A stretch of DNA of 64,000 bases. It comes from Gemmatimonadales bacterium. Its GTDB lineage: Bacteria > Gemmatimonadota > Gemmatimonadetes > Gemmatimonadales > GWC2-71-9. Location of the stretch: the NCBI GenBank assembly GCA_041613315.1, contig JBFJHJ010000008.1:1-64000 (forward strand), written 5' to 3'. The position numbers and the translations under genes were made by a program. Below, piece by piece: positions 6,562 to 21,877 of the stretch (position 1 is its first letter; each line of letters starts with the position of its first letter). A model generated the notes under the pieces. It was given only the letters and a program-made list of their open reading frames with translations. It was not told the origin of the DNA and did not search any database.

Positions 6562-6579
6562 CCGTGACATGTGTCACGG
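6562..6579. promoter_or_regulatory. CRP/FNR-family-like palindromic operator
   Basis: CCGTGACA-TG-TGTCACGG, i.e. GTGA-N6-TCAC, upstream of the riboswitch and protease. Confidence 0.45.
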
Positions 6580-6644
6580 AGGCGCCGTGTGCGCTACGGC
6601 ACTTTGCGATCAACATCACGGCATGATCGCCCTCCTTTCGGAGG

Positions 6645-6747
6645 ACGCGACAAAGGCAAACCCGTCGAAAGGCGGGGACGCAAAGCCACGAGGCTACCGC
6701 CGGGCACGCGATGGGGCGTGCCGGCCAGGCCGGTCGGGTTGCCGAAC
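6645..6747 (+). ncRNA. Cyclic di-GMP-I (GEMM-I) riboswitch
   Basis: AAAGGCAAACCCGTC-GAAA-GGCGGGGACGCAAAGCC...GGGTTGCCGAA is the canonical consensus. G at the G20-equivalent position indicates the c-di-GMP rather than the cGAMP class. Confidence 0.92.
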
Positions 6748-6764
6748 GGACCGAAGGAGGGCCC

Positions 6765-8261
6765 ATGTCATCCCAGCTTCGCGGCCGGCGGACCGCCGTT
6801 GGCGGCCTCCGGGTGCTGCTCTGCGTCGGCGCCGTCACCCTCGTCGCCTGCCAGGACCGCACGCTCCTCGACCCCACGCCCCCGGACGACCAGCCGGGCG
6901 ACGTGAACGCGCAAGTCATTCCGGACCGCTTCATCGTCGTCTTCAAGCCGGACGTGCAGGACGCCCCCGGATTGGCCCGGCAACTGGTGGCGGGCAACGG
7001 CGGCGCCCTACGTCGCACCTATGGGGCGGCGATCAAAGGATTCGCGGCCGACCTACCGGTAGAGGCGGTGGAAGCCCTCGAGCGCAATCCCAACGTCGCC
7101 TACATCGAGCCTGATCTCCCAGCGTCGCTGGTGGACGCGCAGCCGAACCCGCCGTGGGGACTCGACCGGATCGACCAGCCCACGCTGCCGCTGGACGGGA
7201 GCTATGCCTATGACGCCACCGGCAAGGGCGTGCACGTCTACGTGATCGATACGGGCATGCGGATCACCCACCAGGAATTTGGGGGACGGGCGTCCGGCGG
7301 CTTCACGGCGATCGACGACGGGAGAGGAACCGACGACTGTCACGGGCACGGCACCCACGTGGCCGGGACGGTGGGCGCCGCCACGTACGGGGTGGCGAAG
7401 GGCGTTTGGCTCTACGCGGTGCGTGTTATGGACTGCGCCGGATCCGGCAGCCTGAGTGGCGTGATCGCCGCGGTGGACTGGATCACCGCGAACCGCGAGC
7501 TTCCCGCCGTGGCGAACATGAGCCTCGCCGCTGGGGCGCCCTCGTCACTGAACGCGGCGATCCAGCGCTCGATCGATGCGGGTGTGACGTACGTGGCGGC
7601 CGCGGGCAACAAATCGGCGGATGCCTGCAACTACTCGCCCTCCGGCACACCCAACGTGCTGACCGTGGGCGCGAGCGACAAGACGGACACCAAGGCCTCG
7701 TGGTCCAACTGGGGCACTTGCCTCGAATTCTTTGCACCGGGGACGTCCATCCCCTCGGCGTATCACACGAGCGACGAGGCCACGGCTACCAAGAGCGGCA
7801 CGTCGATGGCCTCGCCCCACGGTGCGGGGGCGGCGGCGCTCTACTTGGAGACGCATGTGACCGCCAGCCCGTACGAGGTGGCCGACGCGCTCATCAGCAG
7901 TGCCACGAGCGGTGTCTTGAGCGGTATCGGGCCGGGATCGCCGAACCTGCTGCTCCGGACTTCGGGCACGCCGAGCGCCAATCCCCCGGAGCCCGTGGAC
8001 CAGCCTCCGGTGGCGAGCTTCAACTCCAACTGCCCCAAGGGGAGCTGCACGTTCGACGCCAGCGGCTCCACCGACGATCACGGCATCGTGAGTTACTGGT
8101 GGGACTTCGGCGATGGGTCGGCGCCCGTCACCGAGTCCGGGCCCGTGACGTTCCACCGGTACACGGCTCCCGGGGTGTACGTCATCACGCTGATCGTGAC
8201 CGATACCGCCGACCAGACGGGGCAAACCCAGCGGACCCGGAACATTCGCAAGGTCGGATAA
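6765..8261 (+). CDS. Subtilisin-family S8 serine protease (proteinase K/aqualysin-like) lipoprotein with I9 propeptide and PKD domain
   Basis: GGAGG RBS, lipobox LVAC, catalytic VIDTG / HGHGTHVAG / GTSMASPH, and a C-terminal PKD motif WDFGDG. Confidence 0.93.
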
Positions 8262-8300
8262 GACCCGAGCGGTTAGCGATGTCGCGGCTGGGTGGATACA

Positions 8301-8330
8301 GCAGGGGCTCTCCCGAGGGAGAGCCCCTGC
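8301..8330. terminator. Bidirectional terminator-like hairpin between convergent genes
   Basis: Perfect 13-bp stem GCAGGGGCTCTCC-CGAG-GGAGAGCCCCTGC. Confidence 0.7.
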
Positions 8331-8401
8331 GTCGTTCGGTCCTGCGTCGCGATGCCCCGGCAACGGCCGGCGCGGTCAGCGGACCGGCCGGCCCTCAGCC
8401 G

Positions 8402-9685
8402 TCAGCCGCCCAGGGGGCACCCGAGGTTGTTATCCGCATCGAGCGCCGCCGCCAGGTTCAACATCGTCTGGCGGTGGTTGCTGTCGATGGCCGCGTTCAC
8501 ATCCGAGAGGATGGCGGCCGCGTTCCGCGGGTAGTTCACGTCCGGGTGTGCGGCGTTGAGGAGCGCCGCCACGCTTGCCCGAAGCAGAATCTGCGCCGCG
8601 CCGTTCAGCGTCTTCCCGCCCTGGAAGCTCAGGGCCTGGAGTAGCGACGCATTGGCAAGGCTCGAGCCGCTGGAGCCGTCACCGAACGTGGCCGGTAGGA
8701 CGAACCCGGCGCTGGCCACCGTCTGGCCCGGCGAGAACCCGGAGGGGTCCCACGCGTTCGTGTGGTTCTTCCAGAAGCCGGGGGAGCAGCCCTCGTCCAC
8801 TTCGACCGGGCAGATCCCCGTGGTGATCGTCACCGTCGCCGAGGCGGTCCGCGCCTGACCGCTCTCGATCTCGGTGAGGGTCACCGTGTTGTTCAGCTCG
8901 AAGCTCTCGGCGCACGGCGCCGACACATTGGCGACGGTCACCTCGATGTGCTCTTCGGCCGAGTCCTCGAAGTGGAAGGACCCGATGCCGGTGCACACGA
9001 AGCCGGTCGGGCAGATCTGCGCGTCCGCAACGTCCGCCGCGGCGTCGATCTCGACGATCGTCGGGGAGGCTGGGAGGCTGAAGTCGGCCTTGGGCTCAGG
9101 GCCTTTGGGGGTGCCGAGGCTGCCCGAGTGGTTGGTGATGGTCACCAGCGAGGTGTTTCGGTACGTCGCTCCAGCGACGGGCGTGAACTCGATCTCGTAC
9201 GGGTAGCACGCGGACTCGCCGGCGCCAAGCTCGTCCGGCGTGATGGTCTGCGACGCCCCGGCCAGGTCCTGGAACTGCCCGGCGCCGGTCTTGAACTCGA
9301 CCTGATCCACGATCATCAGGCCCTCAGTCGCCCGTTCTCCGCCATTGGTGACGCAGACGTCGCCGCGGACGCCGATCTTGTCGACGAGCGACACTTGCGT
9401 CCGGGTGGCGCTGATCCAATACGTCACCACACCACTCTCTCCCGGCTTGATCTCGATCTCGGCCGGGTCGACCGACTTGGCGATGTCCCAATCATACGTG
9501 ATGGTGCGTTCGAAGAACCCCTCCGCCGTCTTCACGGCGCTGAGCGTGGTGCCGGCCTGACCGCCGCCGGGGTTGTGGTTCGGGTTGTGATTGAGCAGCG
9601 GCCCGTTGATGGCCGAGCTGGGATCGTCCTTACATGCCCCGAGCAGGGCGGCTAGGACGAGGGGGAACACTAGTGCGCGTTTCAC
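8402..9685 (-). CDS. Secreted lipoprotein with Ig-like/pilin-like beta domains and a C-terminal GCSPGFWKNH domain
   Basis: GTG start behind GGAGG, lipobox LGAC, Thr/Val-rich beta regions with paired Cys. Confidence 0.8.
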   Translation of the reverse strand: MKRALVFPLVLAALLGACKDDPSSAINGPLLNHNPNHNPGGGQAGTTLSAVKTAEGFFERTITYDWDIAKSVDPAEIEIKPGESGVVTYWISATRTQVSLVDKIGVRGDVCVTNGGERATEGLMIVDQVEFKTGAGQFQDLAGASQTITPDELGAGESACYPYEIEFTPVAGATYRNTSLVTITNHSGSLGTPKGPEPKADFSLPASPTIVEIDAAADVADAQICPTGFVCTGIGSFHFEDSAEEHIEVTVANVSAPCAESFELNNTVTLTEIESGQARTASATVTITTGICPVEVDEGCSPGFWKNHTNAWDPSGFSPGQTVASAGFVLPATFGDGSSGSSLANASLLQALSFQGGKTLNGAAQILLRASVAALLNAAHPDVNYPRNAAAILSDVNAAIDSNHRQTMLNLAAALDADNNLGCPLGG

Positions 9686-9744
9686 GACGACCTCCAGAAA
9701 GTGTTGATGTGTGCCTGTCGCCTGCGTGCAGACCGTCGTGTGCT

Positions 9745-9825
9745 CCTGCGGCAGCCCGGCTTTCTCCGATCGAGATCCTGGGGCGTTGCGGACCGGGCTC
9801 ACACCCGGGGTGCCTTAGTCAGCGG
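9745..9825 (-). ncRNA. Variant c-di-GMP-I (GEMM-I) riboswitch
   Basis: Minus strand reads AAGGCACC-CCGGGT-GTGA-GCCCGG-TCCGCAACGCC-CCAGGATCTC..GAGA-AAGCCGGGCTGCCG, about 60 nt before the lipoprotein start. Confidence 0.7.
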
Positions 9826-10148
9826 ATGCCAACGATCGCGCGATTCCGGCCGGCGCTCGCACCGACGCAGCGTCGGCCCCGAATCGCAGAACGCATGTTA
9901 GGGCCGCCCCGACCCGCGCACCATTTACGGCAGGGTGGATTTTCCTATAACCTTCGTTGAGTAGGGGAGCGGCGACGTCTTGTTGGTTCCGAAAGAGGAG
10001 CCCTCACGCGAACAGTTTTGCACGTCCACGGGCAGCGCTTTGCAGTCATAGGTGGCCGCCCGACCCCAAGGAAACAGAAAACGGGTCCCGGAGAACCCCC
10101 GAGACCCGTGGACCGCTGGCGACCGACCGCCGGCGCCGCCGCGCTCGC

Positions 10149-10478
10149 TCAGTTGTGGGAGTGCGCGCTCCCCGCGGTGGCCAGGTTGTAGGAACCGATC
10201 GTGGCGGCCACCCCAACCCGCTCGTCCGAGGGCTCCACCCGCACGACCTGCCCCCGGCACCGTACCTTCATGGGGGCGTCGGGATTCGCTTCCTCGAACA
10301 CGATGGTGAAGTCGATGGCCGTACCGACGATGTAGGGCCGGTCCGTGAAGAAAAACACGCCGATCGCGCTCACGTCGCGGGTAACCCCCGTGCCGTGCGG
10401 CAATTCGACGCGGAGCTCGAGCGCGTAGCGCCGTGCCCGGCGGACGTGGGGCCCGTTGATCGGCGTCACAGGACGCAC
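10149..10478 (-). CDS. Stand-alone PilZ domain protein (c-di-GMP receptor)
   Basis: RxxxR (RRARR) and DxSxxG (DVSAIG) motifs, followed by a beta-barrel pattern GQVVRV. Confidence 0.85.
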   Translation of the reverse strand: MRPVTPINGPHVRRARRYALELRVELPHGTGVTRDVSAIGVFFFTDRPYIVGTAIDFTIVFEEANPDAPMKVRCRGQVVRVEPSDERVGVAATIGSYNLATAGSAHSHN

Positions 10479-10794
10479 TCTAGGGGCAGTGCCGCAACCA
10501 GCGCCATATCATCTCGGTTCGAGTACCGTCTACCGTTCGATAGAGGCCGGGAGCGGCACCGCCCCCGGTGGTCCAGGATATCCGGCCCCCCACCCCCCGG
10601 ACTGTGACGGAGGGTACACTCCCTAGCTGCCATCTTGACCTTCCGCCGCTCCCTTCGGGGCGGTATTTTGGCTCCCTCCTCTTGCCCAACCTGCGACGAC
10701 TGGCGCGCAAGTGGCGTCGCCCTGTGCCACCTGCTGCGCATGGTCACGGCAGTCGGGATCGCGGGTAGCGCGGGGGAGTAGGACGGCGCCCGCG

Positions 10795-12513
10795 ATGCCC
10801 ACCGCCCGATTCATCCACCCCACCTATGCGCCGCGCATCCGCGCGGAGCGTACGATCGCGGTTGGCCGTGTCGTGCTTGCGCAGTTCTCGCTCCTCGCGA
10901 TCTGGCTGGACCCCGCGACCCCCGCACACAACATCACGGCCACCTACCTGCTGCTCAGCCTGTACACGGCGGCGGCGGTCGCGTTGGCCATCGTCGTGTG
11001 GTGGTCGCCGTCCCCGCTCCGCCGGCTACACCTCGTCACGCATTGCACCGAGTTGGGGTTGTTCCTGGTCTTCATGTACCTGACGGAGGGGCCCACCAGC
11101 CCCTTCTTCGTGTATTTCACGTTCTCCCTGGTGGCGGCCACGCTGCGATGGGGGTGGCGCGGCGTCGTGTGGACGGCGGCCGTTATCCTCGTGGCGTTCA
11201 ACGGCCTGGGCCTCTACACGTCGCGCGTGGCGCGGGATCCCGCTTTCGAGCTCAACCGCTTCATCATCCGGAGCGTCTACCTCACCGTGATCGCGGTCCT
11301 GCTTGGCAACCTCGGCGCCTACGAGCGGCGCTGGCGCGGTGAGGTGGCGAAGCTCGCCGCGTGGCCCCGTACCGTGCCGCAAGACATGACCGACGTGGTC
11401 CGGAACGTCCTGGAAAACGCCGCCGCCACGCTCGACGCGCCCCGGATGCTCATCGTGTGGGAGGACCAGGACGAGCCCTGGCAGCGGCTTGCCGTGTGGT
11501 CGGGCGGGGTCCTCGAGGGCCACCGGGAGCCGCCCGGTACCTACGATCCGGTGGTGCCGGCGCCGCCGGGGCGGGCGCCGTTTCTATGCGATGACCTCGG
11601 CGCATCGACTCCCGCGGTGCTCGTCGCCTCGGCCGGTGGACCGCGACCGTGGTCGGGTGCGTCGATCCACGAAGGGCTTACGTCCCGCTTCGCGATCGGT
11701 TCGGTCTTGTACGTCCCCGTGCAAGGCGAATGCGTGGACGCCCACCTCTTCGCACTCGACCGGACGAACCAGACCGCCGACGATCTGACGCTGGGACTGG
11801 TAGTCGCGCGGCAGGCTGCGGACGCGATGGACCATTTCCTCCTGTCGCGGCGAGTCCGCCAGGCCGCGGCAACGGAGGCCCGAGTGCGACTCTCCCGCGA
11901 CCTGCACGACGGCGTACTGCAGTCGCTGACCGGGGCCGCGCTCAAGCTCGAGACGGTCGACCGGCTCTGGGACCGCGATCTCCGGCTGGCGCGCGACCGC
12001 CTAGAGGAGGTCCGTCGCCTCGTCGCCGCCGAGCAGCGCGATCTGCGCGCGCTGGTGCGCGAGCTGGGACCGTCACCCTTGGGGGTCACACCCGACCGGA
12101 TCGACCTGCGGACATCACTGGAGGAGCTGGTGCAGCGCCTGAGCGGTGTCTGGGGCCTCCGCGTGCGGCTGCTGCTCGACGCGCCGGTGGGCGACGTACC
12201 GTCGGCCGTCGCCTACGAGACCTATCGCATCGTGCAGGAAGCCCTCGTCAACGTCGCGCGACACGCTGCCGCGTCCGAAGCCCGCGTGACGATCACGCGC
12301 CGCAACGGAGAGCTGCACGTGGTGGTGGTGGACAACGGCCGGGGGTTCCCGTTCCGCGGCCGCTACGATCATGCGACCCTCACCGGCCTCGAGATCGGGC
12401 CGGCGACGTTGCGCGGCCGCGTGGCTACCCTGGGCGGGAGCCTCGACATCGACTCGAGCGACGCGGGTGCCCGGCTCGATATCCACCTTCCCTTGGCCGG
12501 GACGGAAGCCTGA
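10795..12513 (+). CDS. Membrane sensor histidine kinase (HisKA_3, NarX/DesK-like)
   Basis: N-terminal TM helices, RLSRDLHDGVLQ, QEALVNVARHA and DNGRG. Confidence 0.9.
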   Translation: MPTARFIHPTYAPRIRAERTIAVGRVVLAQFSLLAIWLDPATPAHNITATYLLLSLYTAAAVALAIVVWWSPSPLRRLHLVTHCTELGLFLVFMYLTEGPTSPFFVYFTFSLVAATLRWGWRGVVWTAAVILVAFNGLGLYTSRVARDPAFELNRFIIRSVYLTVIAVLLGNLGAYERRWRGEVAKLAAWPRTVPQDMTDVVRNVLENAAATLDAPRMLIVWEDQDEPWQRLAVWSGGVLEGHREPPGTYDPVVPAPPGRAPFLCDDLGASTPAVLVASAGGPRPWSGASIHEGLTSRFAIGSVLYVPVQGECVDAHLFALDRTNQTADDLTLGLVVARQAADAMDHFLLSRRVRQAAATEARVRLSRDLHDGVLQSLTGAALKLETVDRLWDRDLRLARDRLEEVRRLVAAEQRDLRALVRELGPSPLGVTPDRIDLRTSLEELVQRLSGVWGLRVRLLLDAPVGDVPSAVAYETYRIVQEALVNVARHAAASEARVTITRRNGELHVVVVDNGRGFPFRGRYDHATLTGLEIGPATLRGRVATLGGSLDIDSSDAGARLDIHLPLAGTEA

Positions 12514-12514
12514 C

Positions 12515-13153
12515 GTGACGATCCGCGTCGTCCTGGCCGACGATCACCCGATCGTGATGGACGGCCTCGAGAGCCTGTTCCGGCTCGAGCCTGATTTCCA
12601 GATCGTGGCGCGATGCCAGAACGGCGACGAAGCCCTGCACGCGGTGCGCCGCCACCGCCCGGACGTGCTCATCGTCGACCTCCGGATGCCGAAGCTGGAC
12701 GGCATGGCCGTGGTCCGCTCACTCCACGAGGAAAAGCTGCCGACGCGGGTGATCCTGCTCGCGGGAGCGATCGACCGCACCGATGCCCTCGAAGCCCTCC
12801 GGCTGGGGGTGCGCGGCATGGTGCTGAAGGAGCTGGCCCCGCGGCTCCTGATCCAGTGCGTCCGCAAGGTCCACGCGGGCGAGACGTGGGTGGAGAAGAG
12901 CTCCGTCACCGGCGCGCTCGAGACCCTTCTGCGGCGCGAAGCGGCCATGCGCGAGGTGGGGGCCCACCTGACGCCGCGGGAGATCGAGCTCGTGCGCATG
13001 GTGGCCGGCGGGCTCCGCAACAGGCAGATGGCCCAGCAGCTCTCGATCACCGAGGGCACGGTCAAGATCCACCTGCACAACGTGTACCAGAAGCTCAAGG
13101 TCGAGAACCGGGTGCAGCTCGTGCTCTACGCCCAGTCCAAAGGCCTCGTCTGA
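12515..13153 (+). CDS. NarL/LuxR-family response regulator
   Basis: LADDHP, VDLRMP, and HTH LTPRE...TVKIHLHNVYQKL. Confidence 0.93.
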   Translation: MTIRVVLADDHPIVMDGLESLFRLEPDFQIVARCQNGDEALHAVRRHRPDVLIVDLRMPKLDGMAVVRSLHEEKLPTRVILLAGAIDRTDALEALRLGVRGMVLKELAPRLLIQCVRKVHAGETWVEKSSVTGALETLLRREAAMREVGAHLTPREIELVRMVAGGLRNRQMAQQLSITEGTVKIHLHNVYQKLKVENRVQLVLYAQSKGLV

Positions 13154-20263: not shown

Positions 20264-21010
20264 ATGACACTGAGCAAGCGACAGACCACGCTGTGTAACG
20301 ACAGCACGTGGGACTTCTCCGACCTCAAGGCACTGTTCATCAACTGCACGCTGAAGCCCACGCCGCAGCGATCCCACACCGAGGGGCTCATGAAGATCTC
20401 CATGGAGATCATGGAGAAGAACGATGTCGCGGTGGAGTATCTCCGCGCGGTGGATCATGACATCGCCCCGGGCGTGTACGGCGACATGACCGAGCACGGC
20501 TTCGCCACCGACGAGTGGCCCACGCTGTTCGGCAAGGTCGAGACCGCGAACATCCTGGTGCTGGGCTCACCCATCTGGCTGGGGGAGAAGTCCTCCGAAT
20601 GCACCAAGGTCGTCGAGCGGCTCTATGCGATGTCCAGCCAGCTGAACGACGCCGGGCAGTACGCCTACTACGGCCGCGTGGCGGGGTGTCTCATCACGGG
20701 GAACGAGGACGGGGTCAAGCACTGCTCGATGAGCATCCTCTACGCGCTCCAGCATATCGGCTACACGATCCCACCGCAGGCGGATGCCGGGTGGATCGGC
20801 GAGGCCGGCCCCGGCCCGTCCTACCTCGACGAGGGCTCCGGCGGGCCCGAGAACGACTTCACCAACCGCAACACCACGTTCATGACGTGGAACCTGCTCC
20901 ACCTGGCGCGCCTGCTCACGGACGTGGGCGGGATCCCGGCGCACGGCAACCAGCGCTCGCTGTGGGACGCGGGCTGCCGGTTCGACTTCGAGAATCCGGA
21001 GCATCGATAA
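20264..21010 (+). CDS. Flavodoxin-like NAD(P)H-dependent FMN reductase family protein
   Basis: NCTLK..SHT, GSPIWLG and ITGNEDG. Confidence 0.88.
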   Translation: MTLSKRQTTLCNDSTWDFSDLKALFINCTLKPTPQRSHTEGLMKISMEIMEKNDVAVEYLRAVDHDIAPGVYGDMTEHGFATDEWPTLFGKVETANILVLGSPIWLGEKSSECTKVVERLYAMSSQLNDAGQYAYYGRVAGCLITGNEDGVKHCSMSILYALQHIGYTIPPQADAGWIGEAGPGPSYLDEGSGGPENDFTNRNTTFMTWNLLHLARLLTDVGGIPAHGNQRSLWDAGCRFDFENPEHR

Positions 21011-21541: not shown

Positions 21542-21634
21542 GGGTCGCCCTCCGTATCGTTGGCACGAGATAGGAAAGATAGCACCGAAGCGGAGATTTC
21601 GGTTGAAACTCGCGCTTCTGGCACGTCGGCGCCC

Positions 21635-21877
21635 GATCCCGCCGCACGCGGACGCCGGGTAGATCGGCGAGGCCCGGCCCCGGCCCGTCCTATCTCGACG
21701 CGGGCTCCGGCGGGCCCCGCGAACGATTTCACCAACCGCGACACCACGTTCATGACGCGGAACCTGCTCCACCTGGCGTGTGGTGAAGGACGCCGGCGGG
21801 GCCCCGGCGCACGGCAACCAGCGCTCGCTGTGGGATGCGGGTGCCGGTTCGACTTCGAGAACCCGGAGCATCGGTAG
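21635..21877 (+). pseudogene. Decayed copy of the 3' third of the flavodoxin gene (about 20767-21010)
   Basis: Collinear nucleotide similarity with TGG>TAG and several indels. It ends in the same RFDFENPEHR*. Confidence 0.85.

Follow-up and report, generated by a model that had tools for sequence, protein, structure and literature searches.

Two c-di-GMP-I riboswitches of predicted opposite sign lead a convergent protease and lipoprotein gene pair in Gemmatimonadales

Introduction

Do two lipoprotein genes that converge on one hairpin, each behind a riboswitch of the same class, form a working unit, and which of their neighbours belong to it? The question is raised by a locus in a 64,000-nucleotide (nt) stretch of DNA from a Gemmatimonadales bacterium (assembly GCA_041613315.1, contig JBFJHJ010000008.1, positions 1 to 64,000; here called the window). 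One gene encodes an S8 protease and the other an Ig-like protein, and the leading RNAs, RS1 and RS2, belong to the c-di-GMP-I (GEMM-I) class, whose ligand is cyclic diguanylate (c-di-GMP). A stand-alone PilZ protein and a two-component pair lie beside them (Table 1). An initial annotation of the window had proposed a five-part module, in which a protease processes or releases a surface protein under RNA and protein c-di-GMP sensors. Of this proposal, the protease/lipoprotein core stands, as it recurs in relatives, while the PilZ protein and the kinase pair are not conserved with it. The two riboswitches are predicted to act with opposite signs, and the protease may cut the lipoprotein when c-di-GMP is low.

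RS1, a canonical aptamer with a predicted upstream anti-Shine-Dalgarno element

The reading of RS1 as a canonical GEMM-I RNA ahead of the protease gene is borne out by the Rfam c-di-GMP-I model (RF01051), which it matches at 6645-6746 with 72.3 bits (cut-off 35). RS1 and RS2 are the only two matches to this model in the whole source genome (label G000; 2.63 Mb, 82.9% complete). The ligand-contact positions, numbered as for Vibrio cholerae Vc2 in the available part of PMC4744006 (G20, A47, C92 and the C44-G83 pair), correspond to G6655, C6679, A6682, G6733 and C6742 in the order G20/C44/A47/G83/C92, and all are intact. GEMM-I RNAs are present in 103/120 family genomes. Among the matches listed (150 of 280), 117 distinct aptamers were collected: 17 of the RS1 type, 50 with A at position 20 (A20 type) and 50 others.

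RS1-type RNAs lead S8 or Big_2 lipoprotein genes and have a 5′ leader in common, whose C-rich arm is complementary to the Shine-Dalgarno (SD) sequence 3′ of the aptamer. Across 16 such RNAs, leader:SD duplexes are more stable between cognate than between non-cognate partners (-21.4 versus -18.4 kcal/mol; permutation p 5e-5). The same test gives p 0.009 on 10 RNAs taken one per genome and p 0.007 on nine held-out RNAs; for the anti-aptamer element of the leader, it is borderline (p 0.054).

Folding couples the leader to the ligand pocket. When the pocket is forced, the cost of opening the SD rises by a mean of +5.2 kcal, compared with +0.7 for shuffled leaders, and the coupling lies above the shuffled-leader mean in 15/16 RS1-type RNAs. 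It exceeds the shuffled value by >2 kcal in seven of the nine held-out RNAs, the two that miss it being those without the AUCGC block. For the RS1 of this locus, the coupling is +7.8 kcal with a leader of 36 or 46 nt, which 0/80 shuffles reach. In RNAs ending before the SD, the aptamer helix P1 never forms (16 RS1-type RNAs), and the leader pairs with the P1 5′ strand (probability >0.5) in 12/16. At least six tandem cases, in which an upstream switch precedes the RS1-type switch, imply that the leader is transcribed there. Covariation and folding together suggest that RS1 is likely a translational OFF switch, acting through an anti-SD element 5′ of the aptamer.

Tandem arrangements also pair different aptamer types. 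At L007 (1315 and 1511), an A20-type GEMM-I RNA and a terminator are followed by a G20 RS1-type switch before Big_2 lipoproteins, and A20/G20 pairs likewise occur in L010, L013, L015, L065, L067, L275 and L276. Two-input or band-pass logic is possible for such pairs, a layout that is absent from the logic-gate table in the available part of PMC9481103.

RS2, a conserved variant below the Rfam cut-off

The second GEMM-I-like RNA, annotated ahead of the lipoprotein gene on the minus strand, also holds up, as a conserved variant. RS2 scores 29.8 bits against RF01051, short of the cut-off (35), with E 7.4e-4 in a search of one genome. It keeps all five ligand-contact positions (G20, C44, A47, G83 and C92), a P2 helix with a GNRA loop, and P3. 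Its departures from Vc2, a GYGA loop and an ACC/UCC internal loop, lower the Rfam score. The sequence type, followed by its internal-loop pattern in 401 genomes, recurs across the phylum; the view that RS2 has decayed, or matches by chance, was rejected for that reason. Close relatives of the variant can pass clan models (for example, 63.4 against 59), and RS2 flags a form of c-di-GMP-I that the Rfam cut-off can miss.

Alignment of RS2 with 32 relatives shows P2 paired in 33/33 RNAs, partly by construction, as the pattern used to choose the relatives requires P2 pairing; in the RS2 of this locus, a double change and a single change leave P2 paired. Downstream of these aptamers, 30/32 open reading frames (ORFs) fit a loose lipobox pattern, and 11 of the 25 scanned have Pfam matches (HYR, Big_9, SdrD_B, SpaA_4, curlin, M8, A8, S8). 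In folding, the sign of RS2 leans towards ON by -1.7 to -2.2 kcal, with 3-6/80 shuffles as low, which weakly suggests a translational ON switch.

Some RS2-type aptamers differ at the contact positions themselves. U occupies position 92 (with A at 15) in 6/31 (L155, L158, L163, L166, L185 and L194), while position 20 is C in L234 and A in L197 and L266. Altered ligand specificity is possible in these RNAs, judging from their sequences.

The ligand

The genome has matches to eight GGDEF, one EAL, seven HD_5 and one PilZ domain. The Hypr type of GGDEF domain is marked by a Ser in its signature, and this Ser is found in 0/8 of the GGDEF matches. Both RS1 and RS2 carry G20, whereas A20 marks the c-AMP-GMP (GEMM-Ib) riboswitch variant, according to the available part of PMC9481103. 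Sensing of cyclic GMP-AMP (cGAMP) was considered and is not favoured on these two grounds; c-di-GMP is the likely ligand of both switches, as judged from their sequences.

Recurrence of the two-gene core

In 201 family genomes, 25 sites fit the RS1 pattern (18 genomes) and 23 the RS2 pattern (16 genomes). An S8 orthologue lies head-on within 6 kb at 7/23 RS2-type sites, where 0.027 would be expected by chance, so that the linkage in relatives for which the initial annotation had advised a synteny check is found. The S8 gene of the pair has its own RS1-type switch in four of the seven cases: G000 (this genome), G117:C96, G473:C28 and G083:C4. Seen from the protease side, 10 RS1-led S8 genes were found, eight with visible downstream DNA, and seven of these eight face a secreted-protein or lipoprotein gene. 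Six of ten partners match a profile of the lipoprotein C-terminal domain at E <= 1e-10 and one at 4e-4; three small ones give no match. Prealbumin-like SpaA domains are present in some of the partners. The two genes make up the core, a module that recurs in Gemmatimonadales.

In G083 and G118, a DsbA-like gene stands between partner and S8 gene. At L234:3745-4833 and L266:3606-4685, a gene for a SurA_N/DsbA-like lipoprotein, perhaps serving disulfide formation, is placed between a Cys-rich partner and the S8 gene.

The protease, the lipoprotein and a modelled complex

The domains of the S8 gene product (Inhibitor_I9, Peptidase_S8 and PKD) place it in the S8A proteinase K subfamily. A lipobox-like LVAC at Cys29 and the triad D162/H195/S347 can be read from its sequence, and its best match in the PDB is aqualysin-1 (4dzt; E 5e-104). 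It shares with aqualysin I the I9 propeptide, catalytic domain and triad, and differs from it in the lipoprotein signal, the C-terminal PKD domain and the riboswitch leader. The genome encodes a second aqualysin-like S8 protein (58% identity; G000:C25:23116-24162) with no GEMM-I match nearby, which offers a natural control.

The lipoprotein matches no Pfam, NCBIfam or PDB sequence family. Its structural model, with a predicted local distance difference test score (pLDDT) of 94, consists of a disordered 23-residue tether, two Ig-like sandwiches and a helical C-terminal domain, and the label Ig-like given in the initial annotation therefore holds. A fold search with residues 29-274 gave a generic best hit (Z 11.8; root-mean-square deviation 2.5 Å over 103 residues). 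The C-terminal domain (window 8402-8794, minus strand) bears the motif GxWKNH...AAxLN...NN.

This domain is also found in secreted proteins of Chloroflexota, Thermoplasmatota, Gammaproteobacteria and Gemmatimonadota, as well as in L035, L042, L045, L191 and L267; some homologues carry the precomputed family PF27764. At outside loci with lipoprotein homologues, S8 genes lie nearby in only one locus type, in divergent orientation.

A complex was predicted from the mature S8 protease and lipoprotein residues 41-427, the tether being left out. It scores 0.76, and the best of three controls 0.00. The score mark is reached by 116/157 solved complexes and 2/215 mismatched pairs, a calibration that applies only roughly, as alignments made for the present analysis were used. 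Between runs, at least 97% of the contacts agree, and the partner pLDDT is at least 88. In the model, partner residues 290-296 (model numbering 273-279) lie on H195, S347 and the substrate strands. They belong to the linker after the second Ig domain, with Val294 closest to the catalytic serine. Cleavage at the linker, with shedding of the C-terminal domain, is plausible from this model.

A proposed mechanism and the evidence that weighs against it

These predictions can be joined in one scheme. Without ligand, the nascent RS1 leader would fold on itself, hiding the anti-SD element and both P1 strands and leaving the SD open. Ligand bound during transcription would lock P1; the leader, now free, would lengthen this helix until it covers the SD and the start codon. 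At RS2, by a weaker prediction, the ligand would free the lipoprotein SD. c-di-GMP would repress synthesis of the S8 protease and allow that of the Ig-like surface protein; when it is low, the linker behind the second Ig domain would be cut by the protease, with Val294 as the P1 residue, and the cut would release the C-terminal domain from its lipid-anchored stalk. We give this joint reading, two riboswitches of opposite sign and a protease that cuts the lipoprotein at low c-di-GMP, somewhat less than an even chance. An adhesive role of the lipoprotein is suggested by analogy only. A broader version is doubtful: that Gemmatimonadota independently built a riboswitch-only attach/release module from two new c-di-GMP-I subtypes of opposite translational sign, one of them with a 5′ anti-SD clamping around its aptamer, and that the protease sheds exchangeable, GxWKNH-tipped Ig-stalk lipoproteins at the linker.

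Several results weigh against the scheme. Full-length equilibrium folds close the RS1 SD even without ligand (opening cost 5.6-15.3 kcal, 16 RNAs), so that the ON state needs a co-transcriptional (kinetic) trap, and with a 60-nt leader the coupling at this locus falls to +3.5 kcal, which 5/80 shuffles reach. RS1-type switches also precede Big_2 Ig-like lipoprotein genes, and the OFF sign is therefore not specific to proteases. For RS2, the sign was computed for 25 RNAs of the class (7/32 were dropped, lacking P1 or the motif); 16/25 lean ON and two OFF, but shuffled sequences lean likewise, and the cognate test for anti-SD covariation fails (p 0.17). As for the pairing of the genes, three of the seven pairs have no switch on the S8 gene (G034:C69, G118:C34 and G491:C14), 16/23 RS2-type sites face no S8 gene of this group, and a riboswitch at the cut-off is present at only 3/20 S8 orthologue loci. 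The pair count is also inflated by kinship, as G083, G118 and G491 have one homologous locus in common, which leaves about five types of partner. A full-length orthologue of the lipoprotein occurs in 0/60 relatives, 12 loci with lipoprotein homologues, mostly in other phyla, contain no GEMM-I, and the interdomain linker varies in length and sequence among homologues. Aqualysin-type enzymes are broad in specificity, and the pass of the complex model may reflect memory of solved subtilisin-loop complexes, because the pose is generic to subtilisin substrates and canonical inhibitors, many of which have been solved.

Alternative readings of the pair

Instead of acting on each other, the two genes may be functionally independent neighbours, co-regulated within a broad c-di-GMP riboswitch regulon, that share a terminator or insertion site, with the protease acting in scavenging. 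GEMM-I RNAs in the family indeed lead many unrelated lipoproteins and pilins, the partners are variable (3/10 without the C-terminal domain), and the protease resembles aqualysin, with most of its orthologues lacking a switch. Such independence is nevertheless unlikely, given that the excess of convergent pairs over chance spans several partner families, that most partners share the C-terminal domain and that the complex model passes. The same model invites another interpretation, in which the lipoprotein is a canonical, substrate-like inhibitor and high c-di-GMP silences the protease twice, through RS1 and through an inhibitor induced by RS2. A single extended loop occupies the modelled active site, Cys being its P3 and Pro its P2 residue, a geometry seen in Streptomyces subtilisin inhibitor, and reciprocal switch signs would fit. 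Inhibitors, however, are usually small, the loop of the homologues is not constant in length or sequence, and most outside loci have homologues without a neighbouring S8 gene, so that we consider an inhibitor very unlikely. It is equally improbable that the protease is a maturase, co-expressed with the lipoprotein, that detaches it from the lipid tether, or trims it before assembly in a fibre or matrix. The disordered tether, the partners with prealbumin-like SpaA domains and the uncertain sign of RS2 would suit maturation; the strong OFF prediction for RS1, with RS2 leaning the opposite way, does not, and the model docks an internal linker, although the tether was left out of it.

A last alternative, compatible with the others, extends the pair to all five genes, with PilZ as a c-di-GMP adaptor on the kinase or on the regulator that drives both lipoprotein genes. 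Both annotated components are real: PF07238 recognizes the PilZ protein with 28.1 bits (cut-off 22.5), and the motifs of a c-di-GMP receptor are present as RRARR and DVSAIG, while domain searches recover the HisKA_3 kinase and the NarL-type regulator. This is the only PilZ match in the genome, and it lies within 4 kb of the only two GEMM-I matches, a proximity with a chance of about 0.006. Conservation speaks otherwise. The PilZ query finds a match, and a weak one, in 1/150 family genomes (PF07238 itself is present in 14/71 genomes), and none of 31 PilZ loci has a kinase orthologue or GEMM-I motif within 1.5 kb. Kinase orthologues occur in 6/150 family genomes; at these six loci PilZ is absent, as is the lipoprotein of this locus. 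No kinase orthologue at E <= 1e-60 was found in 300 phylum genomes, with only four candidates per genome scored. Among the best 120 kinase homologues, three are named Gemmatimonadales. The kinase pair lies directly upstream of an RS1-type switch at two of the six loci, both in genus g87, where S8 follows the switch as far as the contig allows; in other genomes the kinase orthologues face secreted-protein genes. In this genome, a terminator separates PilZ from RS2. A five-gene module is thus improbable, and neither PilZ nor the kinase pair is supported as the fixed member that the initial annotation took it to be. A loose link of the kinase pair to the core is possible. PilZ looks genome-specific, although its proximity to the only two switches is unlikely by chance. 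PilZ and the kinase pair were probably added locally to the core, without being fixed parts of it. Joining contigs C101 and C18 of G003 into the gene order of this locus was tried, but they do not overlap and the join is not claimed.

Comparison with known systems

The nearest known circuit is that of Clostridioides difficile. According to the available part of PMC4591827, a class I c-di-GMP riboswitch represses the protease ZmpI/PPEP-1 (CD2830), a class II riboswitch induces its substrate CD2831, and at low c-di-GMP the protease cleaves and releases CD2831. As in that system, adjacent genes for a protease and a surface protein each stand behind a c-di-GMP riboswitch, an arrangement that here recurs in relatives, and the logic of protease OFF, substrate ON and release by cleavage, shown there, is predicted here, the ON sign only weakly. 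The parts differ, as far as the source describes them: a zinc Pro-Pro endopeptidase, a sortase-anchored substrate and class I and II switches acting on transcription in a monoderm, compared with an S8A serine protease and a variable partner, both of them lipoproteins, under two class I switches of predicted translational action in a diderm phylum. Neither a zinc Pro-Pro endopeptidase nor a sortase-anchored substrate is present at this locus, which works like PPEP-1/CD2831 if the predictions hold but is no member of that family, as no part is homologous. In Paenibacillus, PPEP-2 and its adjacent substrate VMSP both bear riboswitches, again like the pair described here but with non-homologous protease and substrate; among PPEP loci, the accessible text of PMC8610288 restricts such switches to C. 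difficile and a single group of Paenibacillus. The initial statement that no such arrangement had been described does not hold, given the published inverse-riboswitch protease/adhesin pair of C. difficile and the doubly riboswitch-led pair of Paenibacillus.

The initial comparison was with LapA/LapG, as similar logic built from unrelated parts. In the Pseudomonas LapA/LapG/LapD system, too, a surface protein is lost by proteolysis when c-di-GMP is low, as is predicted here, but that system uses the protein receptor LapD, the cysteine protease LapG and an adhesin exported by a type I secretion system, with no riboswitch in the part of PMC3032545 available. The locus protease is of family S8 rather than LapG-type C93, and PF06035 has no match in the 82.9% complete genome. 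Where the Lap system has a giant adhesin, the partner here is a lipoprotein of 427 aa. The locus is not a Lap system, and C. difficile and Paenibacillus are the closer parallels.

Compared with Vc2 (RF01051), RS1 has the same aptamer, the same G20/A47/C92 and interhelical C-G pair, and a predicted translational OFF action like that described in the available parts of PMC4744006 and 10.1101/617340. The layout differs, because the anti-ribosome-binding-site element of Vc2 lies downstream of the aptamer (10.1101/617340, in the part available), whereas the predicted anti-SD of RS1 lies upstream and would clamp around the aptamer. No paper was found on a c-di-GMP-I aptamer with its anti-SD on the 5′ side, on Gemmatimonadota GEMM-I regulons or on riboswitch-led subtilase lipoproteins, although supplementary riboswitch tables and subscription papers may list these RNAs. 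If the proposed scheme is true, it would show a further origin, from unrelated components, of the inverse-riboswitch protease/adhesin circuit known from Clostridioides and Paenibacillus, in a phylum that is widespread but has hardly been studied. RS1 offers a testable riboswitch architecture with its predicted anti-SD upstream, and the locus gives a first lead to the function of an unnamed C-terminal domain that is widespread, from Chloroflexota to archaea.

Features of the locus and other observations

Table 1. Features of the locus, in window coordinates
Feature	Position	Strand	Remarks
Palindrome, CRP/FNR-family box-like	6562..6579	none	CGTGA-N6-TCACG; two mismatches to the general consensus
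Second CRP/FNR box-like site	6605-6620
RS1 conserved 5′ leader	6619..6650	+	From folding and comparison of RS1-type leaders
Leader: anti-aptamer element	6619-6623
Leader: AUCGC	6626-6630
Leader: anti-SD	6629-6641
Leader: hairpin 3′ arm	6640-6644
Leader: GCGA	6647-6650		Holds the P1 5′ strand
RS1, canonical c-di-GMP-I (GEMM-I) aptamer	6645..6747	+	G20-A47-C92; GAAA tetraloop; predicted translational OFF switch
Protease-gene SD, GGAGG	6756..6760	+	Complementary to the 5′ anti-SD
S8A protease lipoprotein, 498 aa	6765..8261	+	I9 propeptide, aqualysin-I-like catalytic domain, PKD
14-bp hairpin between convergent genes	8301..8330	none	Likely shared terminator
427-aa lipoprotein	8402..9685	-	Disordered tether, two Ig-like domains, linker, unnamed helical C-terminal domain
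RS2, variant c-di-GMP-I aptamer	9747..9824	-	GUGA tetraloop; ACC/UCC internal loop; weakly predicted translational ON switch
Terminator-like hairpin with T-run	10081..10109	-	Separates PilZ from the RS2 leader
Stand-alone PilZ protein	10149..10478	-	RxxxR and DxSxxG intact; not conserved at this locus
Membrane HisKA_3 sensor kinase	10795..12513	+	Loosely associated; precedes RS1-type switch in genus g87
NarL/LuxR-type response regulator	12515..13153	+	Kinase partner

The hairpin between the convergent genes, annotated as bidirectional and shared, stands as a 14-bp, 100% complementary element, without the U-run: neither strand has one, which is why the terminator scan made no call on it. It occurs once in the genome, and a repeated element of the repetitive extragenic palindromic (REP) type is thereby ruled out. 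A similar junction hairpin is present at all four of the relatives' junctions inspected. Boxes of the CRP/FNR type with at most two mismatches to the general consensus number 295 genome-wide, two CRP-family genes score over the cut-off, and a sigma-70 promoter scan returned no sites.

Elsewhere in the window, the 3′ end of a flavodoxin-like gene has a partial second copy beside a short basic ORF (20264-21010 and 21620-21877).

Other GEMM-I RNAs show recurrent surroundings. CRP-like boxes and sigma-54-like GG-N10-GC motifs, both by their general consensus, lie upstream of many other GEMM-I aptamers (L012, L014, L016, L020, L024, L028 and L033), which lead PilX/FimT pilin genes or no obvious gene. 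In one class, the aptamer is followed by a terminator and then by a conserved non-coding block, TTCTAGGGCGCAC, without a close sense ORF (L016, L019, L024, L028, L033, L108, L118, L123 and L132); a riboswitch-derived small RNA beside another structured RNA is possible there. At L083 (G119:C59), an A20-type GEMM-I RNA leads a gene for a REC-GGDEF protein whose GGDEF domain is degenerate, an arrangement in which feedback is possible.

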